64,000 nucleotides of DNA from a phage. This document shows, in pieces, positions 34,095 through 54,082 of this stretch; position 1 is the first letter of the stretch, and each line of letters opens with the position of its first letter. The position numbers and the translations under genes were made by a program. The notes under the pieces are model-generated. The model ran no database searches. It was not told the origin of the DNA and was given only the letters and a program-made list of their open reading frames with translations. The stretch is taken from the sequence record PZ445134.1; one strand, given 5' to 3'.

Positions 34095-34148
34095 TTTTGC
34101 ATCTCGCGTTAATTGTTGCGATGGTTTTTGCAGGTCTTACTTAAATTA

Positions 34149-37037: not shown

Positions 37038-37077
37038 ATTTCTCTCATTTAATTAGTTTGCCGTCCATGACATTATA

Positions 37078-39789
37078 TCAAAAATCGAACATATCGAAAA
37101 GAGATGCTTTCTTCTCGTAATCGAGTTTCGCTGCTGATGTGAATCCTTCAAGTGGTTTAATAAATGTCTTCTCAAGGAGAACAGTGTAGTCCATCCAATG
37201 AAGTACGTCGTCTTTAATTAAATCTGTGATTTCAGTACCGGAAGGCCATGCGATACATTTATCACCGAATGGGTTTCCTTCACGTAAAGGCAGAACATAT
37301 ACTTTTTCACCTTCTACAACTTGCGGTGCATCGATATTACCTTTGATAGCACGGTTATACGTCAGAATTCCACGAATATGGAATGGGCATTTGGGACCAG
37401 GGAATCCACCTACATCATATTTAGCAATGTTATTCGCAGAAGATACTGACGCGATGCTAATATAATTCAATTGACGGAATTCTTTTTCAAACTCTTTAAA
37501 ATATTCTTGTAATGATTCTTCACCTTCTTGAAGCATACGACGAATACATTCTTTAAGAGCTTTCTGTACTGCTTTAGGAGTCGAAGATTTCTGAGTCTCT
37601 AGACCCATGATTTTGAGTTTAGGCTCAGCGTAACGAGTACCTTCCATATCCCACACGTTTAATGCATAACGTTTCTTACCAGTCCAGAATCCACCAATAC
37701 CTTTAGAACCGAGTGGAGGCCCAGCGATAGCTTCTCGGTCCATGAACATTAAGTGTTGTTTATTGTTCATGTATTCACACATTTCACGGAAACCTCTATC
37801 AATAGCTGGTTCCATACGTTCACGTGCAAACTTATCTAAGAAGTCTACCCAATGGTTGGTATCACGGAATTTAGATTCACCAACCTTATCGATAATTTTA
37901 TCAGCAGATACGTAAATAGAGTCTGTATCACCATAAAGAACGAAAGCTTCACCTTCTGTGCCACAAACTTCATTCAGATATTCATTAACTTTACGTTCAA
38001 TCCACTGTAAAGCCATTTGCCCGAATGTTGTGATTGCAGTAGCATTACGCAAATCGTAATAACGGAACCAAACGTTGCCAAGTGCACCATAAAGTGAGTT
38101 GATAAGCAATTTACGGTTAATTTGGGCAGTCATACCTGCAACTTCAGTACGTTGAGCTCTAAACAACATTTCATTAAGAGATTTAGCAGACAACTTTTTA
38201 ATCTTTTCTTTAATCTCATCGCTGAAGTCGAAACGATAATCAACATCTAATGGTCCGTCAACAGAAAGATTAGGATTATGCAATGCCTCTTTAATTATTT
38301 CACCATTACGTTGAGCCGCAAGCATGTAACCTTTATGTTCTTTACGTTGATTAAAGACTTTAGTGATTTCAGTTGGAACAACACCGTCACGGTCTTTATA
38401 ATACATCATGCCGTTAGGAGAACAACTGTACACATCTGAAGGACGTTCAGCAACAGCGTTAATATAATCATGCAATGGAGCTACTTTAAACGTTCCTGCT
38501 ATTGTTTCTGGGCTAATATTCACTTGGCGAATAATACTTGGATACAGAGATGTAAGGTCGAAACTCATTACGTATTTGTATCGATTTGGAATAGGTTCCT
38601 TAACAAAAGCGCCGGGATAAGGTTGAACCGGGTGAGAACGACCTTGTGGAATCACCTTGTTCTGCTCTTTAAGGCTATTAAAAATAATAGCATCCCATGT
38701 TTTAATTGGGCTAAACACAGATTGAATCTGTATCTTAGCATAATAACCCATGTCCAAGCTCAAGTTAATGAACTGACGTTTAGCATCAATTTGCAATACA
38801 CGATACACGTCGATAATGTTATAAGAAATATATCGTTGGTGATTGCTTTCACGAAGCTTAGAAATAGGGCCGTCATATTTCAGTTTACCAACGTTCAATT
38901 CAAATTCTGAAATGTAATCCAGAGAATATGACGGTTGATTGGTAAAAGAGAATTTTTTGTAAAGGTCAATGTAATCAAGAACAGAGATACCGAACAATGT
39001 AATGATTTCACGAGAACCATACATGTTTTCGATAACTTTAACACGAGTTTTACGATGTGGTGATAAACGTTTCGCAGTAGATTCGCCAAAAATATTCTTG
39101 ATTCGGTTATACACATATGGAATATCAAATGACTCAACGTTCCATCCAGTCAAAATGACAGGAGTTTTCTGTTGCCAGAAGTTGAGATATTCCATCAACA
39201 ATTCTTTTTCGTTATCGAACGGCATATAAATGATTTTATCGATAATTTCGGATGGGACTTCATCACCGCCTTGTTCTTGAAGCTTAGCCGCAATTTCGAT
39301 AGACCATTCTTCCACATTCCCGTATGGAGAATTCAAAAGGTCAAATACGTAGAACCTGTCGTCAATTGAGTCATAATGAGTGATAGCATCAATCGGATGT
39401 TTTGCTTGTGACGGCTCAGGGAACCCGTCTGGAGATGTTACTTCGATGTCGAAGTTAGCCACACGAATTTTTGTATGGTCGTATTTGATTTCATAGTTAT
39501 AAGTGTCAGACAAATACGCCAATTTGAAATCGTCCATGCCAAGTGCTTCAAGTCCGATATCTTCCATGCGTTTAATCCATTGGGAGGCATCACGCATATT
39601 GGCGAACAACTTACGAGTACACGGCTTACCGTAGATATCGAAATATTTCGTAGCCTGACTTTCCGGACAATGAGCAAACAGTGATGGTTTATATTCTACT
39701 TCACGAGTACGTTCACGGCCGTTAGAATCGATGTAACGTTCAAAAATTGAATCACCAATCTGTTCAACCGTTAAGTAAAATTCTTTCAT
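37078..39789 (-). CDS. 43: DNA polymerase (family B)
   Basis: 903 aa; exo motif FDIEV, pol motifs KLLINSLYG and YGDTDS; N-terminus MKEFYLTVEQIGDSIFERYIDSNGRER reads like RB69-type gp43 as recalled. Confidence 0.95.
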   Translation of the reverse strand: MKEFYLTVEQIGDSIFERYIDSNGRERTREVEYKPSLFAHCPESQATKYFDIYGKPCTRKLFANMRDASQWIKRMEDIGLEALGMDDFKLAYLSDTYNYEIKYDHTKIRVANFDIEVTSPDGFPEPSQAKHPIDAITHYDSIDDRFYVFDLLNSPYGNVEEWSIEIAAKLQEQGGDEVPSEIIDKIIYMPFDNEKELLMEYLNFWQQKTPVILTGWNVESFDIPYVYNRIKNIFGESTAKRLSPHRKTRVKVIENMYGSREIITLFGISVLDYIDLYKKFSFTNQPSYSLDYISEFELNVGKLKYDGPISKLRESNHQRYISYNIIDVYRVLQIDAKRQFINLSLDMGYYAKIQIQSVFSPIKTWDAIIFNSLKEQNKVIPQGRSHPVQPYPGAFVKEPIPNRYKYVMSFDLTSLYPSIIRQVNISPETIAGTFKVAPLHDYINAVAERPSDVYSCSPNGMMYYKDRDGVVPTEITKVFNQRKEHKGYMLAAQRNGEIIKEALHNPNLSVDGPLDVDYRFDFSDEIKEKIKKLSAKSLNEMLFRAQRTEVAGMTAQINRKLLINSLYGALGNVWFRYYDLRNATAITTFGQMALQWIERKVNEYLNEVCGTEGEAFVLYGDTDSIYVSADKIIDKVGESKFRDTNHWVDFLDKFARERMEPAIDRGFREMCEYMNNKQHLMFMDREAIAGPPLGSKGIGGFWTGKKRYALNVWDMEGTRYAEPKLKIMGLETQKSSTPKAVQKALKECIRRMLQEGEESLQEYFKEFEKEFRQLNYISIASVSSANNIAKYDVGGFPGPKCPFHIRGILTYNRAIKGNIDAPQVVEGEKVYVLPLREGNPFGDKCIAWPSGTEITDLIKDDVLHWMDYTVLLEKTFIKPLEGFTSAAKLDYEKKASLFDMFDF

Positions 39790-39870
39790 TTAATTTCCTT
39801 TAGACGAGTTATTGTCTTTTGTTTGTTGATGAACTTATTATACTCCAAATGGGACCGAAGTCCCATTGCT

Positions 39871-40248
39871 TTAATTACCAATTGTATATTTTGCTTTCAA
39901 AGTCCAGTCATCTTTCTGTTTAAAAGAGATAACACGGAAGTTATTAGTCAGGCCAAACAGATCTTCACGAGCAGAGTCTTCAATAACAATCAATCCCCAG
40001 TCTTCAAGCAACTGAGCAATCGAATCACGTCGTTGATAGTCTTCACCATCAATATCAACCTGACGTCCGTCCATACGCAGCATTTCTTTAAAGTGGACGA
40101 TGTAATATTTACCTTGCTTTTGGAGGATATGACAAGACTGGTAAAGGACTTTATCCTTGTTATTAGCGATGCCCATACGGGTCAAAGTCTCTTTGACTTT
40201 CAGAAAATCTTCAGGGTTCTTCAATTTAATTTCAATCATTTTTACCAT
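39871..40248 (-). CDS. regA: RegA translational repressor
   Basis: 125 aa; ...[47 protein letters not shown]... matches T4 RegA as recalled. Confidence 0.85.
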
Positions 40249-40805
40249 TCCAATGCTAATTTTTTAAATTGTTTTTGTTCTTTCACATTTTTTGTAACTT
40301 CTTTGAGAAACTCATCAGTGACCATGGCCTTCAGTTCTTTAAGGACTATTGGCAACTTGTTATTTTTTTCAAGGAGCCGCTTATACTCAGTAGCATCATT
40401 CATGTTGATTGTGTAATGTTTCATCAACAGTTTGATAACTAGTAACTCTGAAGTGTCTTCGACTAGTTTAGCCCATTTAGAGAATCGACGACCACGTGGA
40501 ATTGCCGCCATCATATAGTTGAAGTGCGCTTCATCACTTAATTCAGAACCGACTAAGTTCATCATGTAAACAGCTGGCATACATTCTGGGAACTGGGATA
40601 ATGAGTTCTCAACCATAAATTTTGAATAGTCGACCTGAGCAATTGACATAGATTTCTTTTCATTAATAGCATTAATGATTTTAAAGAATTCATTCTCAGG
40701 TTTTTCTTTAAACATATCAGCACATTTTTGAATCGCATCAGCGTCATTAGACTTCCATGCAATTTGGTGCTCGTTAAGCTGGACGTCATCATCGAATAAG
40801 TTCAT
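40242..40805 (-). CDS. 62: clamp loader small subunit
   Basis: 187 aa (T4 gp62 187); synteny 44-62-regA. Confidence 0.75.
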
Positions 40806-40806
40806 A

Positions 40807-41769
40807 TTATTTCCAAGTCAGTTCGCAGGTCAGTTGAAGAAGCATATACATAACATGTAATTCAATATTACTTGCTAATCCATGAAACTTATTGTTTTCG
40901 CCTGCAATTTCATAAAGCGAAATAATACTTTTACCAGGTGCAACTTGGTCATAACATTCTGAAACTAATTTATCGATGAACCATGAATAATCTGCGGCAT
41001 ATTTTGGAGCTAATGCACGAAGCTGTTTGATATCTTTGTTCTTCATTGCTTCGATAACATCAGAGACTGTGCCACGGTCATTAGTTACGATAGACAAAAT
41101 ACCAGCATCAAGAACACCTTTAGACGAGTACTGGTCTAATTGGCCAATTGTGCGACGAAAGTCCGGGAAGTTCTTTTTAACCAGAGCTGCAACAACTTTC
41201 ATATCAGCGATTTCGATATTTTCGTTCTTACAAATTTCAACCATACGATGAATCATTTTCTTCATCATCGATATTTTATCTTCTTCGGTTGGACGTCCGA
41301 ATTCGATAACTCGACAACGACTACGTAATGGTTCAATAATTCCATCGATGTTGTTAGCAGTAATAATAATAGAGCAGTTACTAGAGAATTCTTCCATAAA
41401 CGTACGAAGGTGACGTTGTGATTCGGCGAGGCCACTACGGTCAAATTCATCAATAACAATAACTTTCGGCTTGCCTTCCATTGAGACTGAACGAGCGAAT
41501 GCGGTTAACGGTCCCCGTACAAAATCAATCTTACAATCAGAACCGTTGACGAACATCATTTCGGCATTGATATCATTACATAATGCTTTTGCTACGGTTG
41601 TTTTACCTGTACCAGGAGAAGGAGAGTGCAAAATAATATGAGGAAGTTTTCCTTTAGATACTAAAGACTTGAATGTTTCATGGTCATACGCAGGCAGAAT
41701 ACATTCGTCAATGGAAGAAGGACGATATTTCTGTTCTAGAATGTGTTCTTTGGAATTGATAGTAATCAT
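40807..41769 (-). CDS. 44: clamp loader AAA+ ATPase subunit
   Basis: 320 aa; Walker [10 protein letters not shown]; synteny. Confidence 0.9.
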
Positions 41770-41844
41770 GTAATTTTCCTCATTAACATTAAACTGGAGG
41801 ATTTCTCCTCCATAATCATATCACAATAAACGTAAAGCTTTGAC

Positions 41845-42531
41845 TTAGAAGTCGTGAGTAGAATCGGCTTCCATTGCAATAACATAACTTACTTGAGAGC
41901 TTTCAAACTTGGCTGCAACTTTATCACCAGCTCCCCACAACATTACTTTATAGTTACCCGGCTGAATTTTCATATTAGCCATATTGATTACGAAGTTAAA
42001 GTTATTAGAACCATCATAATCGGTAAGAGTCAAAGAATACTTAGGACGAGTTAGTCCGGAATCTTCAACTTTATTATAGCCATTGATAACAATTTTACCA
42101 TCTTTATTTGTAATAGCAATTGTATCAATCTGAAGACCACGTGAAACTCGAAGCAATTGTTGAAGGTCTTCAGCTTTAATTTCAGTAATCACAGAAGCCA
42201 CTGGGAATTGAATTGGCTTATTAGGAAAAACAATGGTGCTCTTGTCAGCGGCAGGCCAATAAACCGTGGAACGTGTATCTGCAATTTTAATATTGCCATC
42301 GGTGTGCATTGAAATTTCAGCATCATCAGACACTAGACTCAAAATGCTTAAGAAGCTATTCAAATCATAAAGTGCTACGTCAAAATCAATTTCATCAGAG
42401 ATATTTGCTTCCGCATAAGTGGTGCCATTAACTGCACGAGTCATAATAAATTTACCTTGACTCAGCAGAATGCCGGAGTTAATAGAGGCAAAGTTTTTCA
42501 GAATAGCGATAGTATCTTTAGTCAGTTTCAT
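41845..42531 (-). CDS. 45: sliding clamp
   Basis: ORF track 41845..42546; start at MKLTKDT gives 228 aa as T4 gp45; sequence matches T4 gp45 as recalled. Confidence 0.85.
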   Translation of the reverse strand: MKLTKDTIAILKNFASINSGILLSQGKFIMTRAVNGTTYAEANISDEIDFDVALYDLNSFLSILSLVSDDAEISMHTDGNIKIADTRSTVYWPAADKSTIVFPNKPIQFPVASVITEIKAEDLQQLLRVSRGLQIDTIAITNKDGKIVINGYNKVEDSGLTRPKYSLTLTDYDGSNNFNFVINMANMKIQPGNYKVMLWGAGDKVAAKFESSQVSYVIAMEADSTHDF

Positions 42532-42573
42532 TTTATTTCCTTTCAAGACAATTCAAAGTTTATAACAAATTTA

Positions 42574-42990
42574 TTATGCAGCAACCATTTGCTTTTTAAT
42601 AGCTTCAGGCAGTGATTCAATATATTCTGGAATTTTAGAAGCAACAATTTCGCCAGCTGCAATTAGTTGTTCGTCGGCATCAACACAGTAGAAATCTTCC
42701 AGACGCTCAGAACCATCTTTATCAAGAACGATTTTTCCGCCGGCTTCAATAGAATCTTTATAGTGCTTACGCATCAGATGAATCCACATATCAGATACAT
42801 CGTTATCAATAAAACCATAAATCATAAAACGAGTTTCTTGTGGCAAAGATTGGAGTTTTTTAGCACTTGCGTCATCACAATGCAGGACCCATGCTTTACG
42901 AACACGATTATGGTTATGTGGGTTAGCGTCAGTACGGATAGAAGTAACTTTCAGATCAGCAGCAGTGAAACCTTTAGCAGTAGTAAACAT
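42574..42990 (-). CDS. rpbA: hypothetical protein (138 aa), rpbA position
   Basis: located between 45 and 46 as T4 rpbA; symbol by position only. Confidence 0.45.
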   Translation of the reverse strand: MFTTAKGFTAADLKVTSIRTDANPHNHNRVRKAWVLHCDDASAKKLQSLPQETRFMIYGFIDNDVSDMWIHLMRKHYKDSIEAGGKIVLDKDGSERLEDFYCVDADEQLIAAGEIVASKIPEYIESLPEAIKKQMVAA

Positions 42991-43002
42991 ATTATTTCTC
43001 TC

Positions 43003-43203
43003 TTATTCGTAGAAGTCGGTAACTGTCCATGCGGAATTGCGATTAGACATTATTTTATTATACTCATCTTTAAAAGCAGATTTGAGCATTTGTTCAGTAA
43101 CAATATGTTCTTCACCTGAAAACGTATTGGTCAAAACATATTTTTTAATTTCAGGGACAACGAGAAGATGTTGGCCAGTTGAATACTCCATGTTGTTCTC
43201 CAT
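43003..43203 (-). CDS. hypothetical protein (66 aa)
   Basis: ORF track. Confidence 0.4.
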   Translation of the reverse strand: MENNMEYSTGQHLLVVPEIKKYVLTNTFSGEEHIVTEQMLKSAFKDEYNKIMSNRNSAWTVTDFYE

Positions 43204-43245
43204 TTAATTTGATGTGGTCATTATAACCACATCGTGTTAAAGCAT

Positions 43246-44934
43246 TTATGAAACAGTCATTACCGTAAATCGTCCAACTTTGCTCATTTGAAGATGTTGT
43301 CCATACCGTTGAGGGTCATGGTCTCGATGAGAGATAATGAACACATTAGTATTTTGTAAACTTCCGAGAATGGTATCTATAGCCTTAACAGCCTCAGAAT
43401 CGACAGCACCATCAAAAACCTCATCAAGAATCAGAGTGTTGATTTTAACACCGGAGACCTTTTCAGCAATATCTCGCCATGTAAACAACAATGCGATATC
43501 GATACGTGCCTTTTCACCTTGACTAAATGAAGCATAACTAAAATCTTCACGACCACGTGATTTTATAGATTCATTGAATTCTTCGTCAATAGAAAACACG
43601 TAATCAGCTTCCATGATTTTAAGATAATGGTTAATCTGCTTATTGAACAGAGGCACATATTTTTTAATGATAGCACCTTTAATACCAGAATCTTTTAACA
43701 TATCTGTGATAATACCACGATGGTATTTTTCAAGAACGATATCTGATTTTGTTTTAACGATTTTATCAAGTTCTTTTTGAAGCAAAGCTATCTCATCGGC
43801 ATGGTCGATAAATTCTGCCGAGGCTTGTTCTATTGCAGCTTTAACTTTCTTAGCTTTATCAATAGTGGCAATCATTGCTTGTTTCTTGGTACGAATATCA
43901 GATGCAAGGTCCTGTTTAGTCTTAACATTAGCTCTATATTCGTCCACTAGGACACTCAGATTATCTCTGTGACATGTAAGTTGCTCGAATGAGTTATTAC
44001 ATTCGTGAAGCTTATCGGTAATCTTAGAGACAATAGGATCACCCTGGTGCAACTGTGATGCACAAGTAGGACACGTACCACCATCATGATACATCTTAAT
44101 AACTTTGTTATACGAGTCAATTTTAGATTTAATCAAGAATGCTTCTTGTCCTATCTTGTTAAATGCCTCAGTAGGGTCTTCATCAAGAACGATATTAAGT
44201 AGTCGCTCATTAGCTTCTTCGATTTCTGCTTTTAATGAACGAGCTTCTTTGGCTAGGTCGTCATACATATTCTGTAGACGCGCTACATTATCACCAGATA
44301 ATTTCTTTTGACGTTCGATATTCTCGTTATAAATCTTAATTTGTTGGATAACACCATCTTTCTTGGCATCGAGAACTTGTCCCTGGGAATTAAGTTCTCG
44401 AACTTGAGACTTATTGATTTTATCCATTTCAGCGAGTGTGCCGACTTCTAAAAGGTCTTCGACAAGTTTTCTGCGAGCAGGGGTGCTAAGAGCCATGAAA
44501 GGGGTATACCCTGCCGTCCCAAGCACAACGATTTGTTTAAAAGACGCGTATGACATTCCGATGCTACGTTCAAATTCTTCTTGGAAGTCACGACTGCTGG
44601 CAGATTCATCAAGACGAACACCGTCAACGGAGATTTCGAAAATATTGGGCTTTTGGCCACGTTTAATGAAGTATTTTTTATCATCGAATTCCATCCAAAG
44701 CTCAACTAAGAGCCCTTTCTTGTTCGTGCTATTAATGATTTGCCCTTTCTTAACGTCACGAAATGGTTTACCGAAAAGTCCGAAAGTAACGGCTTCTAAC
44801 ATCGTAGATTTACCACCACCATTTTTACCAGTGATTAATGTCTTTTGGACTTTATCTAATTGGATATCAATAGGATTCCCGCCTACCGACATGATGTTTT
44901 GATAACGAACACGATTTAATTTAAATGATTTCAT
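43246..44934 (-). CDS. 46: recombination endonuclease subunit (Rad50/SbcC-like)
   Basis: 562 aa; Walker A GKNGGGKST; central coiled-coil with CxxC hook (CPTC); synteny. Confidence 0.9.
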   Translation of the reverse strand: MKSFKLNRVRYQNIMSVGGNPIDIQLDKVQKTLITGKNGGGKSTMLEAVTFGLFGKPFRDVKKGQIINSTNKKGLLVELWMEFDDKKYFIKRGQKPNIFEISVDGVRLDESASSRDFQEEFERSIGMSYASFKQIVVLGTAGYTPFMALSTPARRKLVEDLLEVGTLAEMDKINKSQVRELNSQGQVLDAKKDGVIQQIKIYNENIERQKKLSGDNVARLQNMYDDLAKEARSLKAEIEEANERLLNIVLDEDPTEAFNKIGQEAFLIKSKIDSYNKVIKMYHDGGTCPTCASQLHQGDPIVSKITDKLHECNNSFEQLTCHRDNLSVLVDEYRANVKTKQDLASDIRTKKQAMIATIDKAKKVKAAIEQASAEFIDHADEIALLQKELDKIVKTKSDIVLEKYHRGIITDMLKDSGIKGAIIKKYVPLFNKQINHYLKIMEADYVFSIDEEFNESIKSRGREDFSYASFSQGEKARIDIALLFTWRDIAEKVSGVKINTLILDEVFDGAVDSEAVKAIDTILGSLQNTNVFIISHRDHDPQRYGQHLQMSKVGRFTVMTVS

Positions 44935-45185
44935 ATGTATTCTCTTCGAATGAAGTCCTCTACATATTTTAACATGTCATCTCTATCAGCAAAATATTCA
45001 TCTAGTTCTGCATACATAACAACACCTGGCGCGTACTCACAGGTAACATACATTGTTCCAAAGAAACGAGGAGTTGATTCCTCGTAATTCTCAGTCCATT
45101 CAACGACGCCAATATAACCGTCACCAATACTAAATTCATGACGATGGATTTCATAATCAGTCTTCGTCATTATACGCGTCCTCAA
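44931..45185 (-). CDS. hypothetical protein (84 aa)
   Basis: ORF track; 4-nt overlap with gene 46 start. Confidence 0.45.
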   Translation of the reverse strand: MRTRIMTKTDYEIHRHEFSIGDGYIGVVEWTENYEESTPRFFGTMYVTCEYAPGVVMYAELDEYFADRDDMLKYVEDFIRREYI

Positions 45186-45414
45186 TACACGCTTCAGCCA
45201 TTTTAAGAATAGAGCCAGGAGTATCGTTGTCCATTATATTAAAGCTAAATTCAACAGCCCAGTCGGTGCAGACATGAACTGCTTTAACTTCATTACCTTC
45301 AACGCGTAATGGCTCAATCCAATACTTGATAGTGTTCTCGAATCCATCATCATCTTTAACGTCCATTTCAACTTCAAGCCTGAGTCCAGCATTGTTAAAT
45401 TCATCTAAAGTCAT
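45157..45414 (-). CDS. hypothetical acidic protein (85 aa)
   Basis: ORF track. Confidence 0.45.
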   Translation of the reverse strand: MTLDEFNNAGLRLEVEMDVKDDDGFENTIKYWIEPLRVEGNEVKAVHVCTDWAVEFSFNIMDNDTPGSILKMAEACIEDAYNDED

Positions 45415-46430
45415 TGTGTTGCCTCAATATAAAGTTCGTTGGAATATTTGACCAGCGCTTCTCTGTCTTCGTCTGAGATATCTGGAATCGCGTCAATATA
45501 TTCTTTAATGATATCTTGAAGAGATTTAATCTCGATTTCCTGGTCGTCATCAGATTCAACACTGTTATCAACTTTAGAAACCATACGAAGAGAGTGAACT
45601 ACTTTTTCAAGTTCAGATTCAAACTTAGTCAACTCTGAATCAATTTCTGATACTATAACACGTACGGCTAGATTAGTATAATCAGAATAATTGATTTTGC
45701 CTTTAAACGGATAAGTGATTCGTCGATGCCATGTTGTTTCGTTAGGAATAAATTCCATACGTTCAACATCAGTGTCAAATACCCAAAATCCGCGCGGGTC
45801 GTTCTCATCACCTGCAGTAAGGGTCCATGGTGTCCCAATATATTTGACGTTAGCAGCTTCAGAGATTGTGTGGAAGTGGCCGGACCAGACTTGTTTATAG
45901 GTCTTTAAGAAATCAGGTTCAAGCCCATGAGACTTCATTCCTTTATAGAAATAAAAACCATTCAGTTCCCAGTGCCCAACACAATACGCTGCGGAAGAAG
46001 TCTTGATGTGCTCTAAGATTTCACCTGTATTTTCTTCGCACATCCATGGAACGATATCAATCAGACATCCGTCAAAATCTACAGTAGTTGGATGCTCGTA
46101 AATAGTAAAGTTTTCAAATTGAGTTAACAATTCAGAAACAGTGTTAGGTGTTATTGTATTCTTAAACGCCATGTCATGGTTTCCTATCGTGACATGAACG
46201 TGAATGCCTGCTTTAGAAATCATATCAACGATTTCACGATTGAATTCCATTGTACGATGTGTTATTGCTTTACGGACGTCAAACCAATCACCGTACTGAA
46301 TCCAAGTTTTAATCCCATGTTTCTTAGAGTATTCAATTGCTTGACGAATACCATCACGTTGAATATCTTGAACCCATGGGTCGTCTTGTTTGACTCCGAT
46401 ATGGAAGTCGCCTAAGTGCAAAATTTTCAT
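45411..46430 (-). CDS. 47: recombination endonuclease subunit (Mre11/SbcD-like phosphoesterase)
   Basis: 339 aa (T4 gp47 339); N-terminal MKILHLGDFH phosphoesterase motif. Confidence 0.9.
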   Translation of the reverse strand: MKILHLGDFHIGVKQDDPWVQDIQRDGIRQAIEYSKKHGIKTWIQYGDWFDVRKAITHRTMEFNREIVDMISKAGIHVHVTIGNHDMAFKNTITPNTVSELLTQFENFTIYEHPTTVDFDGCLIDIVPWMCEENTGEILEHIKTSSAAYCVGHWELNGFYFYKGMKSHGLEPDFLKTYKQVWSGHFHTISEAANVKYIGTPWTLTAGDENDPRGFWVFDTDVERMEFIPNETTWHRRITYPFKGKINYSDYTNLAVRVIVSEIDSELTKFESELEKVVHSLRMVSKVDNSVESDDDQEIEIKSLQDIIKEYIDAIPDISDEDREALVKYSNELYIEATQ

Positions 46431-46476
46431 ATTATTTCCTCATTAGTTAATTCATTCTATCATCCGCTTATAAAGC

Positions 46477-46502
46477 AAAAAAAAGGAACTCCGAAGAGTT
46501 CC
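46477..46502 (-). terminator. intrinsic terminator (GGAACUC-UUCG-GAGUUCC + U8)
   Basis: hairpin with UUCG loop followed by UUUUUUUUGC on minus strand. Confidence 0.55.
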
Positions 46503-46675
46503 TATCCACATAGTACACCATACAGAGGCTCATTTGAACTTTTAAATCGAATGGGCTTGTATGTAATAGTTCCTTCGGCTTTAGCTTTATCATAAGACTC
46601 TTTAAAACGCCTCATTCTTTCTGCTTTGCCTTTACGGATTTTATCGAAATTTTCAGAGGTCAGGTCGTTCGTCAT
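46502..46675 (-). CDS. small basic ORF (~57 aa)
   Basis: hand-translated MTNDLTSENFDKIRKGKAERMRRFKESYDKAKAEG...; ends at the terminator; below ORF-track cutoff. Confidence 0.3.
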   Translation of the reverse strand: MTNDLTSENFDKIRKGKAERMRRFKESYDKAKAEGTITYKPIRFKSSNEPLYGVLCG

Positions 46676-46895
46676 GCATAATCACCTCTCAGAAAATACC
46701 TAAATCGATTTCTCTCATCGTTTCCACCATTTCTTAACTTGAAATGAGTCAACCCACACGAGTTGTTTTGGGTCGGCCCTTATAACAGGTGGACAAATTT
46801 CTGTAATAGAACTGTCGTGATATTCCTTTTCAGAGATTTTAACACAAAGAGGACCTCCCAATTTAAGGGTGAACCCTGCGTTCAGCTTAAGACGT

Positions 46896-47219
46896 TTAAA
46901 CTTTGTTTGAACTAGCGCCATTAATGATGTCCTCAATAGCCTGACGAGTAGTAACCCACTGGATTTTAATTAACTTGTCATTATATGGTTGTCGTAGAAT
47001 ATCCCGAGATTTCTTAATAGCATATTCGTAAGCTTCGAAGTTGTTTTGAATTGCTGCTTCTTGAGCATGAGCATAAAGACGGTTTAGTTCAAAACGATTC
47101 TTTTTAAGAATCTTTTCGGATTTTTTACGTGCTTCAGCTTCATTTTTCTTTTGGATTTCTTGTAGCATTTTAGCTACTGCATCTTCTGCTTCTTTATTTT
47201 CAATAATCTCGGTAGTCAT
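46896..47219 (-). CDS. hypothetical protein (107 aa)
   Basis: ORF track. Confidence 0.45.
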   Translation of the reverse strand: MTTEIIENKEAEDAVAKMLQEIQKKNEAEARKKSEKILKKNRFELNRLYAHAQEAAIQNNFEAYEYAIKKSRDILRQPYNDKLIKIQWVTTRQAIEDIINGASSNKV

Positions 47220-47220
47220 A

Positions 47221-47430
47221 TTATCTCATTAAATTAAAATAAAAACGTCCATCCTCTTCAATACAGAACTCATACTCAACCGGAGTCCCATTTATCGAAA
47301 ATGACACGTCATGTGGGTTCAAAGGGTCGATGTCAAAATTAATTTTAAATTCACGACCCAACAGTTTTACCAAATAAGGGATTGCTTCGTCAAAAGGTTC
47401 TTCTAAGTAGTTAGAGATGTCAATTGTCAT
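47221..47430 (-). CDS. hypothetical protein (~69 aa)
   Basis: ORF track 47221..47514; probable internal start overlapping gene 55 stop. Confidence 0.4.
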
Positions 47431-47977
47431 CCTCATATAAAAAATCCAAACTAGGCGAATCGCTAACAACTTCCTTCTTTTCAGCCCCAGGAGCTTTATA
47501 AGCGGATTCTTCATAATGCGTCATTTTATCGTAGATGTCTTGAATAAACGTTTCATCTACCAACGCTACCATATCATCGTCATGACTGTCGTAGACGTTA
47601 TGAACGAAGTAACTATATTTCTTTGCAACTTCCTTACGTTCTTTTTTGATACGTTGGACAAAAGCATTAAAACAAGCTCGAGTTATGTATGCATGTGGGT
47701 TATTGTACTTAGTTTCGTCGAAATTATGAAGACCCTTAATAGAGGCTTCAATCCCATCTGCAATCATCTCCTGCTTCCAAGACTGGGTATATCCTGAAAA
47801 GTTGAAACGTTTGGACAGGCCTTCGGCGATAAGCATAATTGCTAAACCGATGGTATCATTCTGACGAATAATTTTGTTTGGGTCTTTATTATTTAAGAGC
47901 TCCTTTTTCCACTCGATTATAGCGGCGAGAAGCTCTTTATTATTCACATAGTTATTTTTAGGTTTTTGTTCAGTCAT
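47420..47977 (-). CDS. 55: late transcription sigma factor gp55
   Basis: 185 aa as T4 gp55; synteny 47...55...nrd. Confidence 0.8.
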
Positions 47978-48132
47978 AAGTACCTCTTAGCTCAATTCAT
48001 AGGTCTATTATATCATAATATTTAGAGACCTATCTTAAAGCACGAGATACTATCAAAGATACATAACTTTCATAAAGTTGTCGACTTAAAATTCACCAAA
48101 CTTTTATTCGGTTATAGTAATTCGAGATAGTT

Positions 48133-48360
48133 TCATTCTATTTCCTTTGCTGCAAATAAGGCAGCATCCAACGAATCAAATTGGTCAACGAAATCAATAT
48201 TCAATGCATCGTCATCCGTAGCATATAACCACCATTGTTTGAATTCGTATTCTAGAATAAATCCAGGACCTTCAATCTGAGGAAGACCTAGACTATTTGT
48301 ACTAACTTCATAACCAGCTAGACGCAGGTCATTAATCAAAGTTTCTGTTAATACGTTCAT
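48133..48360 (-). CDS. hypothetical acidic protein (75 aa)
   Basis: ORF track. Confidence 0.4.
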   Translation of the reverse strand: MNVLTETLINDLRLAGYEVSTNSLGLPQIEGPGFILEYEFKQWWLYATDDDALNIDFVDQFDSLDAALFAAKEIE

Positions 48361-48728
48361 TTTACCGCCTTAACAATTTTCAGGTCAACGAATTTTTTCT
48401 TACGTTGATTTTTCATACGACGGATAGTCTTTTCAGAGATTTCATGTTTCTGATAAGCTTTAGATTCAACACCAAATGCAGCAACGTCAAATTCAGAAAG
48501 AATATATTGTACTAGAATTTCACGAATAGAATTACGTCCAATTTTCTGGTCGTGTTTTTGCATGATTTCATAAAGACGGAATTCCCACGCGTCAAGAACT
48601 TGAGGAGTAACAATATTGCCGGATTCAAGAAGAGCAACAACTTTATCGAAAGCGAAAGAATTAACTACGTTTTTGATTTTAGTAGACATATTATTTTCCT
48701 CGGTTATTTTATTATCCAATGAGAGCAT
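48357..48728 (-). CDS. hypothetical protein (123 aa)
   Basis: ORF track. Confidence 0.45.
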   Translation of the reverse strand: MLSLDNKITEENNMSTKIKNVVNSFAFDKVVALLESGNIVTPQVLDAWEFRLYEIMQKHDQKIGRNSIREILVQYILSEFDVAAFGVESKAYQKHEISEKTIRRMKNQRKKKFVDLKIVKAVK

Positions 48729-48758
48729 TATACTCTGCTCTCAAGAGTTTGTAAATCG

Positions 48759-48971
48759 TTATCCGAACTTTTTAGCGCCTTTCCAGCCTTCGTACATAAC
48801 TGCACAAGTCAGTAATACAGCGTGCTGGCATTCTTTGTATTTGTAAATCCAGAACCAGCGTAAAAAGTCTTCATCCTCAACACCGTTGAGTTTCATGTTG
48901 GCAAAGAATTCGGCACGTTCTTCACGAAGTTGCCATGACACAATATTTTCAGGATTCATTTTGTGTTCCAC
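48759..48971 (-). CDS. hypothetical protein (70 aa)
   Basis: ORF track. Confidence 0.4.
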   Translation of the reverse strand: MEHKMNPENIVSWQLREERAEFFANMKLNGVEDEDFLRWFWIYKYKECQHAVLLTCAVMYEGWKGAKKFG

Positions 48972-49090
48972 GCCCCGTTTTCGTCGATGAACTTAATCCA
49001 GTCATTTACAGACCATTTAGTTGTGTCACCCTTTGGATTAACATTTAAAGTATATAATCCCTGCTTAAAAAGCATTCGTTTGATATTCAT
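48956..49090 (-). CDS. small ORF (~44 aa)
   Basis: ORF track 48956..49183; internal Met preceded by RBS GAGGAA. Confidence 0.3.
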   Translation of the reverse strand: MNIKRMLFKQGLYTLNVNPKGDTTKWSVNDWIKFIDENGAWNTK

Positions 49091-49097
49091 AATTTCC

Positions 49098-49391
49098 TCA
49101 ACTGTAACGATAACATTCGTTAGCTTTACGTTTGGCTTCAGTATGAGAAGTATTATAATCATAATCTTCTTTACTGTAAACATCTTTTTTCAACTTACGA
49201 ACTTCTTTGCGGAGTTGTCGATTCATTTCGTTCTTGACTTCAGAATCAACGCCTTTCATACGTTTCCATTTATCCGAGCGGAAAATGTTTTCAACCATGT
49301 CTTTGTGGCTAACACCGTCAGGAGCTTTACGTTTACCAAAATAGTCGTAATCACGAACTTTCAAATCTTTACGACGATACGTTTTACCCAT
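49098..49391 (-). CDS. hypothetical basic protein (~97 aa)
   Basis: ORF track 49098..49418; probable internal start. Confidence 0.4.
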   Translation of the reverse strand: MGKTYRRKDLKVRDYDYFGKRKAPDGVSHKDMVENIFRSDKWKRMKGVDSEVKNEMNRQLRKEVRKLKKDVYSKEDYDYNTSHTEAKRKANECYRYS

Positions 49392-49398
49392 AAGTACC

Positions 49399-49809
49399 TC
49401 AGAGGTTGATTGATACAATGCGTTTGATAAAATTCACTTCACTTACTGAAAGGTCTTTAAGACCGATTGATTCTAAACGCTGAGTAAGCGTCAACATCGG
49501 GATATAGTCCCAATGTGTTTTAGACGTTTGATAAGTACGGACGCCATTAGCAATTTCAACGTTCAAATCAGAAATGGTAATGAATACCAGACGTTCGTTG
49601 TTTACATTAAGAGTTAGAACAACTTTCTTCGAATTCAGACTAATCATTTTGTTTTCCTCTATAGTAGATGGTTTAATCTTAACACATCTATTGAGGATGT
49701 AAACTGTTTTATGAAAATATTTTCGATTTGAGAGGGGCACAAGGAGATAGTGAAGTGAAGATTCCAATTGGATTATATTAGAAATGAGATAAAGAAGACC
49801 AGGCGGCAC
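49399..49809 (-). CDS. hypothetical protein (136 aa)
   Basis: ORF track. Confidence 0.45.
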   Translation of the reverse strand: MPPGLLYLISNIIQLESSLHYLLVPLSNRKYFHKTVYILNRCVKIKPSTIEENKMISLNSKKVVLTLNVNNERLVFITISDLNVEIANGVRTYQTSKTHWDYIPMLTLTQRLESIGLKDLSVSEVNFIKRIVSINL

Positions 49810-49813
49810 CTGG

Positions 49814-50137
49814 TCAATCTTCTATGATATCAGAGTCATATCCTAATGAAATCAAGGACTTTTTAAACTCTGCAATATTCTTTTGTTTCTTATCATTTAA
49901 AAATATGACAGGATAACGAATATTAAGTGAAGTGAATCCTGCACGTTTAGCAAGAGATACGATTAAAGGACGGTCATATTCAATCTTACCATTATTAGTG
50001 AGGACTTTATAAAATGTATAAGGAGCATTGAGCTCCTTTAAAAGTTTTGTAACAGTATAACATCCTGGACAACGTCCTACTTCTTCAGGGATGCCATAGA
50101 TTTCAATCTTGTTCTTTAAGTTCGAGTTTTGTTCCAC
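49814..50137 (-). CDS. nrdH: glutaredoxin-like protein NrdH
   Basis: CPGCY redox motif; probable GTG start with RBS AAGGA; ORF-track N-terminal extension rejected. Confidence 0.55.
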   Translation of the reverse strand: MEQNSNLKNKIEIYGIPEEVGRCPGCYTVTKLLKELNAPYTFYKVLTNNGKIEYDRPLIVSLAKRAGFTSLNIRYPVIFLNDKKQKNIAEFKKSLISLGYDSDIIED

Positions 50138-50420
50138 GAGAAATAATTCCTTGGTAAGCCCAATAAGGAGGATTAACAGAATCCTCGCCAGAGTTTTCTT
50201 CAGGAAAATAAACCTGGATAACAAATCCAGATTCATCAAAGGTAAAATAAACTGTAGGTAATTCACCTAACAATTCAGCACGATTATTAATTTCTTCGAG
50301 TTCTCGTTCACATCCAGCCCAAAAACTAGGATTTAAACTACATTCGTAAAAATAATAGTCATTACCGAACATATCAAAACCATTCCAACTCTCAACCACA
50401 TACCGCTCAAAACTAATCAT
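50103..50420 (-). CDS. hypothetical acidic protein (105 aa)
   Basis: ORF track; overlaps nrdH start by ~35 nt. Confidence 0.45.
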   Translation of the reverse strand: MISFERYVVESWNGFDMFGNDYYFYECSLNPSFWAGCERELEEINNRAELLGELPTVYFTFDESGFVIQVYFPEENSGEDSVNPPYWAYQGIISRGTKLELKEQD

Positions 50421-50422
50421 AA

Positions 50423-50662
50423 TTAAGCCTTTTTATCAAGAACAGAATTCAGTTTATTAGTAATTTTGTCCAAACGTTCATTGAATTCGCTGGAGGATAA
50501 ACCCTTTTCAGGAGAAATTAAACTAATCACGAAAAATACAACAGTAAAAGGAATAAGAAAAATAGCTCCAACTGCCATAAACAAAAAGAACGTTACAGTT
50601 GTAAGAAAATCAGCTAAACCTTTACGAAATTTATACATATTTACCCTTAATTGATTAACCAA
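50423..50662 (-). CDS. membrane protein (79 aa)
   Basis: ORF track; one long hydrophobic segment. Confidence 0.45.
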   Translation of the reverse strand: MVNQLRVNMYKFRKGLADFLTTVTFFLFMAVGAIFLIPFTVVFFVISLISPEKGLSSSEFNERLDKITNKLNSVLDKKA

Positions 50663-50752
50663 ACATTGATAAACACTAAACTATATTGCGAATAAAATTC
50701 TGGACCAAAACGAAAAATCATATCATTTATAGTATCCATAGTGTAATTCAAT

Positions 50753-51223
50753 TTAATCATGTTTCCACACCCCGTCGGTATTTGTCCAAAGTCGCTGATT
50801 ATCTGATCCTCGCCACAGTTTTTTGGTCGGAAGATTTTTCTCATACTTCCCATCAATAATAACATCAACATATTTAAGCATTTCTAGTTGTTTAATATCT
50901 TCAAACTTATATCCTGTCCACAACCAAATGCTTTTATTGGGATAAAGTTTTTTTACTGTTTGAACAATGCAATGAACAACATCTTGGTTATCAGGATAGA
51001 GAGGGTCTCCTCCAGTTATAGTTAATCCTTCTATATAATCGTTATTCAAACATTCAATTAATTGTTCCAGCGTTTCACCGGTGAATGGGATACCATTTCT
51101 AGCGTTCCATGTTGATTTATTATAACACCCCTCGCATTTATGCAAACAACCTGTAACGAAAAGAACGACCCTGCAACCGGGGCCATTCACAAAATCGCAA
51201 GGATAAAATCTATCATAATTCAT
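50753..51223 (-). CDS. nrdG: anaerobic ribonucleotide reductase activating protein (radical SAM)
   Basis: 156 aa; C-x3-C-x2-C (CLHKCEGC); 4-nt overlap with nrdD stop. Confidence 0.85.
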   Translation of the reverse strand: MNYDRFYPCDFVNGPGCRVVLFVTGCLHKCEGCYNKSTWNARNGIPFTGETLEQLIECLNNDYIEGLTITGGDPLYPDNQDVVHCIVQTVKKLYPNKSIWLWTGYKFEDIKQLEMLKYVDVIIDGKYEKNLPTKKLWRGSDNQRLWTNTDGVWKHD

Positions 51224-52518
51224 TGGTGTTTAACCCTATGCATGATTTCTTTATTTTTGCCGAGATTAAATCCGCGTTCGTTCGGATTTCCAAGATAACC
51301 GCATGTTCTTCTTATTGTGTTCATCTTTTTAGGATCAGTTTCTCCGCAAACTGAACAAACAAATCCGTTTTCAGTAGGAGTCATTTCATGAGTACTTCCA
51401 CATGTAAAACATTTATCTACTGGCATATTAACACCAAAATAATCTAAATGTTGTGCAGCATAATCCCATACAGCCTCAAGACCTTTTAGGTTATTTTTCA
51501 TATCAGGAAGTTCAACATAAGAAATGTGACCACCAGTCGCAATGAAATGATATGGCGCTTCACGAGAAATCTTTTCAAACGGAGTAATATTTTCTTCTAC
51601 TGAAACGTGGAAACTATTAGTGTACCAGCCTTTATCAGTAACATCTTTTACACTTCCATATTTTTCGGTATCAAGTTTACAGAAGCGATAGCACAGGTTT
51701 TCAGCAGGAGTAGAATACAAGCTAAAAGCAAAACCGGTTCTTTCAGTCCACTGCTTAAGACGAGCATTCATTTTAGTCAAAATTTCCTGTCCAATATCAC
51801 GTCCGACAAGAATATTCAATTCGTGAATACCAATGTATCCTAAAGACACTGAACTTCTGCCGTTTTTAAATAACTCAATTATATCATCATCAGGTTTAAG
51901 ACGAACCCCAAATGCACCTTCTTGGTAAAGAATAGGAGCAACAGTAGCTTTAACTCCTTTTAAGGAACTAATTCTACACATCAAAGCTTCAAAACACAGA
52001 TCCATTCGTTCATTAAATAGCTCAACAAATTTCTGTTCATTGAATTGTGTTCCAATATAAGAATCTAACGCAATACGAGGAAGATTCAGTGTTACAACAC
52101 CAAGATTATTACGCCCATCAAGAATTTCATTACCAGTCGAATCTTTCCATACGCTCAAAAAACTACGGCAACCCATTGGAGAAACAGGAACAGATGAACC
52201 GGTGATAGCTTTATTATTCTTAACTGAAATAATATCAGGATACATTCTTTTGCTTGCACATTCTAACGCAAGCTGCTTAATATCATAGTTCGGGTCGTCT
52301 TTATAAAGATTAACACCCTCTTCAACGAACATAACAAGTTTAGGGAAAATAGGAGTTATCCCATCGCGACCAAGACCTTTAATACGATTTTTCAGAATTG
52401 CTTTCTGAATCATTCGTTCAGTCCAGTCAGTTCCCGTGCCAAATGTAATGGTTACAAAAGGCGTTTGTCCGTTTGAACTGAAAAGTGTATTTACTTCATC
52501 ATTATATTCAGCATGAGT
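51220..52518 (-). CDS. nrdD: anaerobic ribonucleotide reductase NrdD, exon 2
   Basis: glycyl radical motif RRTCGYLG and C-terminal Zn ribbon CFTCGS...CSVCG; 5' boundary inferred from frame plus terminal intron G. Confidence 0.75.
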   Translation of the reverse strand, partial: THAEYNDEVNTLFSSNGQTPFVTITFGTGTDWTERMIQKAILKNRIKGLGRDGITPIFPKLVMFVEEGVNLYKDDPNYDIKQLALECASKRMYPDIISVKNNKAITGSSVPVSPMGCRSFLSVWKDSTGNEILDGRNNLGVVTLNLPRIALDSYIGTQFNEQKFVELFNERMDLCFEALMCRISSLKGVKATVAPILYQEGAFGVRLKPDDDIIELFKNGRSSVSLGYIGIHELNILVGRDIGQEILTKMNARLKQWTERTGFAFSLYSTPAENLCYRFCKLDTEKYGSVKDVTDKGWYTNSFHVSVEENITPFEKISREAPYHFIATGGHISYVELPDMKNNLKGLEAVWDYAAQHLDYFGVNMPVDKCFTCGSTHEMTPTENGFVCSVCGETDPKKMNTIRRTCGYLGNPNERGFNLGKNKEIMHRVKHQ

Positions 52519-52525
52519 CGCAAAT

Positions 52526-53296
52526 TCATGCCCGTTTATATGAAACAACAAAATTTGGATAGTCCATAGATATGCAACGTTCTTTTATAGTGCTAGGATG
52601 AAAATTTAGCGCTTTAGCTGCTTCTATATAAGACGTATACTTAATACCGTCAACAACCACATATTCAGGAACTTTATGAATAGTAGTCTTAATACTCAAA
52701 ACAAGAGGATGAGTTTCGACTTCACTTTCAGTGCAATTTAAATATTCCGCTGCTTTTTTAAAACTTCTAAAAGTTTTATTTTTAAGCTTTATCGATACTT
52801 GTTTTTTACTTTTTCGACTATTGATATTATTTTGCACATGTTCCTTAGATCTTCTGTTTTTAGCATAATATTCAGCCACAGAAGATTTTATATTGTTTTT
52901 ATGAGATTCGGATAACACTTTACCCTTATGAGCATCTCTTAATTTTTGAATATGTTCTTCAGTATCCGGATGCTTATAAAACTTTTTACCGCCTATGGAT
53001 TTATTTAAACATTTTTTGCTATAAAAATATTTACGTATGACCTCTTCTTCATGTTTTAATGCATCTTTATAACTATCAAATGTTTTTAAAATTATCCATT
53101 TAGTAGGTGTATCAGTTTTTAAGCGTTCATTTATATACTTAGATGACGTTGTGTAAGTTTTCCAGTTTGTGGGCTTGTTTTTAATTGTTCTAAATTTTTT
53201 ATAACCGATATAAATGTCGCCATTAGAAAACTTAACTAAGTATGTAAATGCGTCTTTATCTTTTATTTTAGTACAACGTCTTTTTATCCATTTCAT
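52526..53296 (-). CDS. GIY-YIG homing endonuclease (I-TevII-like)
   Basis: 256 aa; N-terminal YLVKFSNGDIYIGY GIY-YIG-type motif; Lys-rich C-terminal DNA-binding region; inside nrdD intron. Confidence 0.7.
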   Translation of the reverse strand: MKWIKRRCTKIKDKDAFTYLVKFSNGDIYIGYKKFRTIKNKPTNWKTYTTSSKYINERLKTDTPTKWIILKTFDSYKDALKHEEEVIRKYFYSKKCLNKSIGGKKFYKHPDTEEHIQKLRDAHKGKVLSESHKNNIKSSVAEYYAKNRRSKEHVQNNINSRKSKKQVSIKLKNKTFRSFKKAAEYLNCTESEVETHPLVLSIKTTIHKVPEYVVVDGIKYTSYIEAAKALNFHPSTIKERCISMDYPNFVVSYKRA

Positions 53297-53325
53297 TGTT
53301 TCACCTCGTATTCATAAGATAATCT

Positions 53326-53333
53326 TATTTATA
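53326..53333 (-). promoter_or_regulatory. late promoter TATAAATA upstream of intron endonuclease ORF
   Basis: minus strand TGTATAAATAAGATTATCTTATGAATACGAGGTGAAACAATG. Confidence 0.45.
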
Positions 53334-53539
53334 CAAGATGACTGCTGCATGTCGCCATGCAGATTAGACTATATCTTCATCTTTCGATGCCGGCCGTTTC
53401 GAATAGCATTAGCTTCTATTCTACACCGCTACATTCATCACGGTTAGTCGTTAGGCATTTAGTTCAAAAGAACATTTAGCACGGGATTGTCTACTAGAGA
53501 GGTTCCCCGTTTAGACCGGTTTTACATGAGCCTGAATTA

Positions 53540-54082
53540 AATTAACTCATACGCCTGGAATGCATCATATACGTCTTTTTCTGTTTTAGATTGGGCATAA
53601 TTCAACGCATCAGCGATTTGCCATTTTTCTGCATCCTCAATATGTTTTGCATAGGTGCGTTTAACATAAGGAGAAAGTACTTTGTCTACATTAGCAAAAG
53701 TCGTTCCGCCGTATTGATGGGAAGCAACCTGTGCGGTAATTTGTGCCATAATTGCAGTAGCAACACCAATCGATTTAGGCGTTTCAATTTGAGCATTGCC
53801 TAATTTAAATCCATTCTCAAGCATCCCCTTTAAATCGACTAAACAGCAATTAGTAAACGGAAGAGCAGGAGAATAATCAATATCATGCATGTGAATGATT
53901 CCGCTTTCATGCGCATGCATAATAAAAGACGGGACCATATTTTTGGCAATGTGCTTAGACACAATACCAGCCATAAGGTCCCGTTGAGTTGGAAAAACAC
54001 GAGAATCTTTATTAGCATTCTCGTTCAAAAGATCTTTATTAGTTTTATGAATTAATCCTTCAATTTCTTTTTCAATTTTCAT
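53540..54082 (-). CDS. nrdD: anaerobic ribonucleotide reductase NrdD, exon 1
   Basis: 181 aa N-terminal part; ORF terminates at a stop that is the first codon of the intron. Confidence 0.75.

Follow-up and report, generated by a model that had tools for sequence, protein, structure and literature searches.

A predicted second group I intron allele, with an I-TevII-like endonuclease gene, at the T4 nrdD insertion site of a T4-like phage

The 64,000-nt stretch of phage DNA analysed here (PZ445134.1, hereafter the window, in whose positions all coordinates are given) carries nrdD on the minus strand, like every gene in that part of the window, with gene 49 (endonuclease VII) upstream and nrdG downstream in the same order as in T4. 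The NrdD reading frame is split in the ORF list into a 181-aa ORF (54082..53537) and a 443-aa ORF (52551..51220), between which lies a further ORF of 256 aa (53296..52526), and read-through from exon 1 ends at an in-frame TAA at 53539..53537. A preliminary description of this DNA had reported the split frame, and the two NrdD-like ORFs and the stop codon bear it out. Judged by its alignments, the window is that of a T4-like phage with a backbone close to Mosigvirus, positions 30000..52400 matching AV112 and AV113, both of them Mosigvirus phages, at 99.2% identity. Phage AV112 has an intron-less nrdD and carries instead a homing endonuclease gene (273 aa) that stands free in the interval from gene 49 to nrdD. 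Relative to AV112, the nrdD of the window differs heavily over nt 1-260 and moderately to about nt 1431, after which the two are essentially identical, and this graded divergence places the intron region inside a recombination tract.

Alignment of the whole region with T4 nrdD (NC_000866) revealed exons that are 90-99% identical and an insert that is colinear, far more diverged and at the same position, with an intron length of 1045 nt here against 1033 nt in T4. In a multiple alignment, the intron-less T2 and HY01 alleles show a gap exactly at 53544..52500, which places the 5' splice site after U53545 and the 3' splice site after the terminal G52500, and shifting the boundary by one base in either direction fails to give the intron-less sequence, GA(A/G)T joined to ATGAAG. 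Alignment to intron-less alleles had been proposed in the preliminary description as the way to fix the splice sites, and it does so at positions other than those first suggested (Table 1). The insert of about 1 kb that had been placed at 52519-53539 is real, with both of its ends misplaced: the 5' boundary was 5 nt short because the in-frame TAA at 53539 had been taken as the boundary, and the 3' boundary at 52519 was 19 nt short of G52500. Removal of the intron yields a CDS of 1818 nt encoding an uninterrupted 605-aa NrdD, reading ...DAFQAYE-YEVNTLF... across the junction and colinear with the intron-less alleles of T2, HY01 and AV112; the predicted ligated junction joins ...UAUGAGU to AUGAAGU..., that is, ...GCGUAUGAGU to AUGAAGUAAAU.... 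The end of exon 1 reads UAUGAGU in both intron-bearing alleles as against UAUGAAU in intron-less alleles, where AUGAAU would leave an A.C mismatch at position -2 of P1. In the internal guide a C is the partner of this G at -2, so that the intron travels with the exon base that completes P1.

Table 1. Features of the interrupted nrdD locus (window positions)
Feature	Position	Strand	Basis or remark
nrdD exon 1, 538 nt, ends ...UAUGAGU	53545..54082	-	alignment with T4 nrdD and intron-less T2/HY01
Group I intron (predicted), 1045 nt, UAAUUUAAUU... to ...CUGAAUAUAAUG	52500..53544	-	gap in intron-less alleles; RF00028
nrdD exon 2, 1280 nt, starts AUGAAGUAAAU	51220..52499	-	alignments and spliced CDS
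P1: exon AUGAGU (53550..53545) with guide GCUCAU (53531..53526)	53526..53550	-	6/6 standard pairs in both intron types
Catalytic core: P3, P4, P5, P6, P6a, P7, P7.1, P7.2, P8, P9	53345..53519	-	Rfam alignment, pair counts
42-nt patch (J3/4, P4, P5, 5' strand of P6), TCTAAACGGGGAACCTCTCTAGTAGACAATCCCGTGCTAAAT	53474..53515	-	42/42 identical to T4 td intron
Hairpin sequestering Shine-Dalgarno GAGGUGA; 5' arm overlaps late promoter	53301..53341	-	folding
T4 late-promoter motif TATAAATA, 29 nt upstream of endonuclease ATG	53326..53333	-	homologous to T4 site; function inferred
Long-range P9.1-like helix, 5' strand, includes AUG	53284..53305	-	RNAduplex
Putative homing endonuclease gene, 256 aa, I-TevII-like GIY-YIG	52526..53296	-	Pfam, I-TevII homology, PHROG 314
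Long-range P9.1-like helix, 3' strand, in last ORF codons	52539..52562	-	RNAduplex
P9.2-like 3'-terminal hairpin, holds endonuclease stop codon	52510..52532	-	7-pair stem, -7.6 kcal/mol
3' end motif CUGAAUAUAAUG, terminal G at 52500	52500..52511	-	alignments with other phage introns

Assignment of the insert to group I was supported by an Infernal scan targeted to 52300..53800, in which the Rfam group I intron model RF00028 aligned over its full length (1-253) to 53576..53345 on the minus strand with 71.8 bits (E = 6.8e-18), about 22 bits above the gathering score of 50. Under the same Rfam gathering threshold the T4 nrdD intron scores 105.3 bits and two ORF-less copies of the window allele score 72.0 and 70.9 bits. 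Scans of the whole window with Rfam/Infernal, at the gathering threshold and also at E <= 0.01, returned zero hits. Because the 1.5-kb scan recovers the element and related loci score 71-105 bits, we do not take these blank scans as evidence of absence, and most likely the size of the search space led the filter to a false negative. The preliminary description had called the insert a group I intron and had suggested that an Infernal search finding no group I model would refute this. Applied to the whole window that test would misfire, the scans there being blank for an element that does score, and the group I assignment itself holds, with RF00028 above its gathering score in the targeted scan, a U.G pair at the 5' splice site (U53545 opposite G53531 in P1) and a terminal G.

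The predicted fold was checked by comparing the window intron with the T4 nrdD intron. All 51 scored pairs in P1 and P3-P9, including P6a, P7.1 and P7.2, are standard in both introns, with 12 pairs changed on both sides and 2 on one side, as against 32-37% paired in slid controls in which the 3' partners were moved by 1-3 columns; these counts come from two distinct sequences only, and the structure was drawn from those same two. RNAfold applied to the 345-nt BYEP01 mini-intron independently recovers P3, P4, P5, P6, P6a, P7.1, P7.2, P8 and P9. The P10 pairing is weak (4 bp, judged by eye). Within P9, the string CTGCATGGCGACATGCAG that had been quoted earlier as part of the core is present at 53362..53345 on the minus strand. 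At the 3' end, the T4 nrdD intron has a stem in the same place as the P9.2-like hairpin, with 4 of the 7 pairs changed on both sides, and the terminal motif CUGAAyAyAAUG is common to the introns of the window, of T4 td and of Vequintavirus nrdD, with the near form CUGAACACAUUG in that of T4 nrdD. A pairing of the 3' tail CUGAAU with AUUCAG of the P1 loop was considered and dropped from the model, as it is not conserved in T4. The long-range P9.1-like helix has a predicted energy of -20.5 kcal/mol (RNAduplex), with 52562..52539 among the most stable partner regions along the intron; the homologous T4 helix has -16.3 kcal/mol, and folding of the ORF-less 345-nt intron of BYEP01 also gives a P9.1-like helix. 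Adjoining this helix, the 3' end of the ORF has TTGTTTCATATAAACGGG in both intron types, within an ORF whose DNA is roughly 60-70% identical as a whole, an identity that could be explained by a dual constraint from the ORF and the long-range helix. Together, these observations support the reading of the insert as a T-even-type group I intron with P7.1/P7.2 that is predicted to splice.

The ORF within the intron matches the Pfam family SegE_GIY-YIG (PF19835) over residues 9-106 with a score of 27.5 against a cut-off of 25, NUMOD1 with 25.3 against 22.8, and PHROG 314, 'homing endonuclease', with 103 bits; the generic Pfam GIY-YIG family (PF01541) reaches 10.5 bits, below its cut-off. End-to-end alignment with T4 I-TevII gave 144 identical residues of 257 (56%, E = 2e-101), and together with the SegE_GIY-YIG match this upholds the earlier identification of a 256-aa GIY-YIG protein in the 3' part of the insert. 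I-TevII has the same residues at E83 and N98, whose spacing is that of the catalytic E75/N90 of I-TevI, the MAFFT register against I-TevI being unreliable, and a counterpart of the Arg of the GIY-YIG fold was not identifiable. No relative with a solved structure was detectable by sequence search. PMC2988022 lists I-TevII among the active GIY-YIG intron endonucleases, with nrdD as its target. The ORF in the window is intact and identical to the copies in HY03 and pSe_SNUABM_01.

Upstream of this ORF lie the late-promoter motif and, 7 nt ahead of the ATG, a Shine-Dalgarno sequence GAGGTGA (53307..53301, minus strand). Both occupy positions homologous to those in T4, in agreement with the late promoter of its own and the good RBS that had been ascribed to the endonuclease gene. 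The octamer TATAAATA is under-represented in the 64-kb window, with 2 occurrences against 7.3 expected from shuffles, and in the SA20RB record it already carries the label of a T4-type late promoter, with the ORF given as a homing endonuclease. The Shine-Dalgarno sequence forms the 3' arm of a predicted hairpin of -17.3 kcal/mol (z = -4.75, with 0 of 200 shuffles as stable; -15.3 kcal/mol for the T4 counterpart), and TATAAATA lies within its 5' half, so that late transcripts should lack the 5' arm. The promoters of T4 intron endonucleases have been mapped by primer extension, and in T4 endonuclease translation is repressed on read-through transcripts and released on late transcripts (both reviewed in PMC2988022). 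With its T4-like geometry, a late promoter and RBS-sequestration module appears to be present in the window, and its promoter is presumably used. An autorepressor operator has also been proposed for the T4 endonucleases (PMC2988022). In the window, the homing site of the intron-less allele (-14 to +10) matches intron nt 222-245 at 17 of 24 positions, with 16 of 2000 shuffles as good. The resemblance of this operator-like match to the proposed T4 operator is suggestive only.

The T4 nrdD (sunY) intron with I-TevII is the textbook system for an element of this kind, and the two share most of their layout. The insertion site is identical, with UAUGAGU before the intron and AUGAAGU after it, and the internal guide is GCUCAU in both; both are without P2 and have P7.1 and P7.2; in both, the ORF lies downstream of P9, looped out of the long helix, and is preceded by TATAAATA, a Shine-Dalgarno sequence and a covering hairpin; and both types end in a 3' hairpin followed by CUGAAyAyAUUG/AAUG. 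The endonucleases are full-length homologues of 256 aa here and 258 aa in T4. The same architecture as the T4 nrdD intron with I-TevII had been recognised in the preliminary description, and the common insertion site and the colinear alignment confirm it. The window intron differs, however, in being only 67-69% identical to its T4 counterpart in DNA and 56% in protein, in the sequences of P3, P4, P6a, P7.1, P7.2, P8 and the 3' hairpin, where the changes are compensatory, in a 9-nt insertion in the promoter/RBS hairpin, in an ORF two codons shorter, and in a P4-P6 patch that is td-like rather than sunY-like.

Two further groups of introns share parts of this element. The T4 td intron (I-TevI), of the same T-even intron subgroup and with the 3' end motif in common, is identical to the window intron at 42 of 42 positions over J3/4, P4, P5 and the 5' strand of P6 and at 35 of 40 over P7'-P9; it differs in lying in another gene, with another P1 and guide, in having P2 and in carrying its ORF in the P6 loop, and by alignment I-TevI is only 28% identical to the endonuclease of the window. 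The nrdD introns of Felixounavirus and Vequintavirus have the guide GCUCAU and the 3' end motif in common with the window intron, but they occupy another nrdD site (between SPMG and CRSF, after exon AUGGGU) and hold their endonuclease gene in the P6 loop, of HNH type according to related Felixounavirus records. The guide GCUCAU fits both AUGAGU and AUGGGU.

The distribution of the intron among phages is consistent with a mobile element. With a 400-nt joined-exon query, 618 of 697 phage records match as one contiguous piece and thus have an intron-less nrdD, so that the intron is present as sporadically as had been supposed. The window intron was found at full length in 44 public phage genomes, in all of them at least 99.2% identical (megablast, 1045-nt query) and in HY03 and pSe_SNUABM_01 100% identical. 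The T4-type nrdD intron occurs in 25 records that are at least 99.2% identical among themselves, its carriers being T4 strains together with PST, RB55, RB59, U5, G8, fPS-2, EC128 and Manna. Between these two nrdD intron alleles DNA identity is 67-69%, and megablast with the window intron finds T4 only through the 42-nt match to the td intron. Searches with the endonuclease by tblastn likewise return two clades only, the next relatives being 31-34% identical and confined to the N-terminal domain, and the phage collection has nothing intermediate between the two clades. The window intron is not the T4 intron itself but a second and distinct allele at the nrdD site of T4. The exons of HY03 are 93.7% and 92.8% identical to those of the window, although the intron is identical; an intron that has diverged far less than the gene around it is what recent horizontal spread by homing should leave behind, and we consider such spread the probable history of the window intron. 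This allele is already present in dozens of GenBank genomes, in which the ORF is labelled a homing endonuclease and the element is partly annotated. We found no description of the second allele in the open-access literature searched, and a prior description is possible.

Considered as a whole, the evidence makes it very probable that this locus holds a mobile, self-splicing group I intron with an I-TevII-like endonuclease and a late promoter/RBS module at the T4 nrdD site, an element whose structure, splice junctions, protein homology, distribution and regulatory motifs are shown in silico and for which we infer splicing, promoter use, cleavage and homing. In this model the pre-mRNA would fold into P1 and P3-P9, with the endonuclease ORF looped out of the long P9.1-like helix downstream of the core, guanosine would attack after U53545, the U of the P1 U.G pair, and the exons would be joined after the terminal G52500 to restore the 605-aa NrdD. 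By analogy with T4, the Shine-Dalgarno sequence of the endonuclease would be buried in the hairpin on early and middle read-through transcripts, whereas late transcripts from TATAAATA would start inside the hairpin, freeing the RBS so that the enzyme is made late. The I-TevII-like enzyme may then cut the intron-less nrdD of co-infecting phages, and double-strand-break repair would copy in the intron together with short flanking exon tracts, again as in T4. The T4 precedents for the late promoter, for RBS sequestration and for homing of the nrdD intron have been reviewed (PMC2988022).

The strongest alternative grants splicing and questions mobility. Under this explanation the endonuclease is inactive or its targets are exhausted, and the intron is an immobile passenger losing its ORF, late in the homing-endonuclease life cycle. 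Phages 215Ecol030PP (intron of 479 nt) and BYEP01 (345 nt) do carry derivatives of the window allele from which the ORF is deleted, both with core, promoter/RBS hairpin and 3' tail intact, and copies in F1/FN, 236Ecol005PP and FL23/FL44 seem to be frameshifted, sequencing errors being possible. Such copies make it evident that endonuclease activity is not required, and it may be in the course of decay in this lineage. In the window, however, the 256-aa ORF is intact and the same as in HY03 and pSe_SNUABM_01, the putative catalytic Glu (E83) and Asn (N98) are shared with I-TevII, the promoter, RBS and hairpin are intact, and the 618 intron-less records of 697 represent abundant targets, and we therefore regard an immobile passenger as unlikely and favour the mobile intron.

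Far less probable is an insertion that does not splice at all, leaving nrdD as a pseudogene or as a gene for two separate polypeptides. The nrdA gene of Aeromonas phage Aeh1, split by mobE, is the model for a gene expressed as two polypeptides, and most GenBank records of the window allele annotate two separate nrdD CDSs with no join; the blank whole-window Rfam scans would also fit. Against a non-splicing insertion stand the targeted Rfam score 22 bits above the threshold, the retention of every core helix through compensatory change relative to the T4 intron, and a U.G pair and terminal G exactly where excision restores the frame. Moreover, exon 2 is without an RBS or ATG of its own at the junction, where the only candidate start is a TTG inside the endonuclease ORF, and the exons are 93-95% identical to functional T4 nrdD. 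That the element is simply the T4 nrdD intron with I-TevII, in T4 or a near-identical strain, was rejected: site and order of parts agree and the lengths are similar (1045 vs 1033 nt, 256 vs 258 aa), but megablast reaches T4 through the 42-nt td match only, the intron and endonuclease are just 67-69% and 56% identical to those of T4, and the alleles form two discrete clusters, each at least 99.2% identical internally.

Returning to the mobile intron and its core, the ribozyme sequence appears to be mosaic. The preliminary description had found the core close to that of the T4 td intron, a likeness that holds to the letter for TCTAAACGGGGAACCTCTCTAGTAGACAATCCCGTGCTAAAT. This patch corresponds to intron nt 30-71, where the T4 nrdD intron matches at 31 of 42 positions. 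An incongruence test used the sites that distinguish the two nrdD alleles and at which td has the base of one or the other. All 10 such sites in nt 30-71 group td with the window allele, and from nt 84 onward 20 of 26 group it with the T4 nrdD allele (Fisher p = 3e-5). Between the 3' core of the window intron (nt 72-203) and a Vequintavirus nrdD intron identity is 82%, and nt 83-124 agree with a Felixounavirus nrdD intron at 41 of 42 positions. The combination of a td-like patch with a Felixounavirus/Vequintavirus-like 3' core points to the exchange of ribozyme segments among phage introns and to a recombinant core in the window. Bryk and Belfort reportedly observed such segment exchange between the td and sunY introns in the laboratory (Nature, 1990).

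In summary, the interrupted nrdD described here is an element of a known kind that calls for no new mechanism, and what it adds is a distinct second allele and an apparently recombinant core. Two practical warnings follow for annotation: an intron that a 0.8-kb ORF interrupts can escape an Infernal scan of a whole window, and nrdD is mis-annotated as two genes in most genome records. The value of the element is otherwise comparative, as it sets beside the sunY ribozyme and I-TevII a well-diverged natural counterpart of each, located at the same site. Comparison of the two alleles yields compensatory changes that support the scored ribozyme helices, and it offers a natural test of I-TevII specificity. 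The recombination signal between phage intron cores is clear. A tentative extension, in which we place somewhat less belief than disbelief, is that two old and discrete nrdD intron alleles compete for one site, that the window allele is a natural chimera with P4-P6 of td type and P6a-P9 related to Felixounavirus/Vequintavirus, and that its I-TevII paralogue (44% diverged) may have shifted its target preference. If this is true, ribozyme modules, besides endonuclease genes, would have been shuffled between introns and across phage genera in nature.

The nrdD intron of the window belongs to a locus whose exon sequences and neighbouring endonuclease genes differ among related phages (see table). 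I-TevII presumably cleaves about 13-15 nt into exon 2, and the synonymous sites near this expected cut (exon 2 positions 1-20) vary among alleles, reading ACTCTCTTT in intron-less alleles, ACACTTTTC in the window and ACGTTATTC in T4. Donor sequence carried along by hitch-hiking could account for these synonymous differences, as could selection against cleavage.

Coordinates of the nrdD-associated features, comparison loci and late-promoter motif
Feature	Sequence or locus	Coordinates	Remark
Exon 2 positions 1-20	window	52480..52499	
gene 49/nrdD overlap	window	54079..54082	
Free-standing homing endonuclease gene, 273 aa	L010 (AV112, OR352942)	3039..3860	between gene 49 and nrdD
nrdD stop/nrdG start	window	51220..51223	
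P4 5' strand, UCUAAACGGGG	window	53504..53510	
Repeat of UCUAAACGGGG in ORF end	window	52531..52537	
Vequintavirus nrdD intron	L009	1400..2170	second nrdD site (SPMG/CRSF)
Felixounavirus nrdD intron	L008	1920..2620	second nrdD site (SPMG/CRSF)
Second TATAAATA copy	window	21877..21884 (-)	sole copy besides the intron's in 64 kb
Rfam intron match	window	53345..53576	

The intron of the window resembles the Vequintavirus and Felixounavirus nrdD introns, which hold an endonuclease gene inside the P6 loop, in its internal guide GCUCAU, in large stretches of the core and in the 3' end motif. This suggests that a single ribozyme lineage occupies two nrdD sites at which the exon ends, AUGAGU and AUGGGU, are alike. 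Within the conserved end of the endonuclease ORF, UAUAAACGGG, the P4 5' strand recurs, a duplication also found in T4, and this repeat could in principle act as a competitor for the P4 3' strand.

Rfam detection of the intron differed with the length scanned: a scan limited to 1.5 kb scored 71.8 bits against a gathering score of 50, and Infernal/Rfam gave no match, at the gathering threshold or at E <= 0.01, when all 64 kb were scanned. Such scans could likewise overlook other structured RNAs in the window. The T4 late-promoter octamer TATAAATA is strongly under-represented across the 64 kb (2 found, 7.3 expected), a scarcity consistent with a region of early and middle genes.

The closest backbone relative, Escherichia phage AV112, is 99.2% identical over window positions 30000-52400. 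Its nrdD is intron-less and an endonuclease gene separates gene 49 from nrdD, which overlap directly in the window. Identity falls to ~67% over the first 260 nt of nrdD, a divergence that could reflect resistance to, or a co-conversion tract of, this free-standing endonuclease. Between nrdD and nrdG the window lacks both homing endonuclease genes mobC and segH, whereas T4 carries mobC at this junction. Phage HY03 carries segH there despite having an intron identical to that of the window, which argues that the intron and neighbouring free-standing endonuclease genes assort independently.
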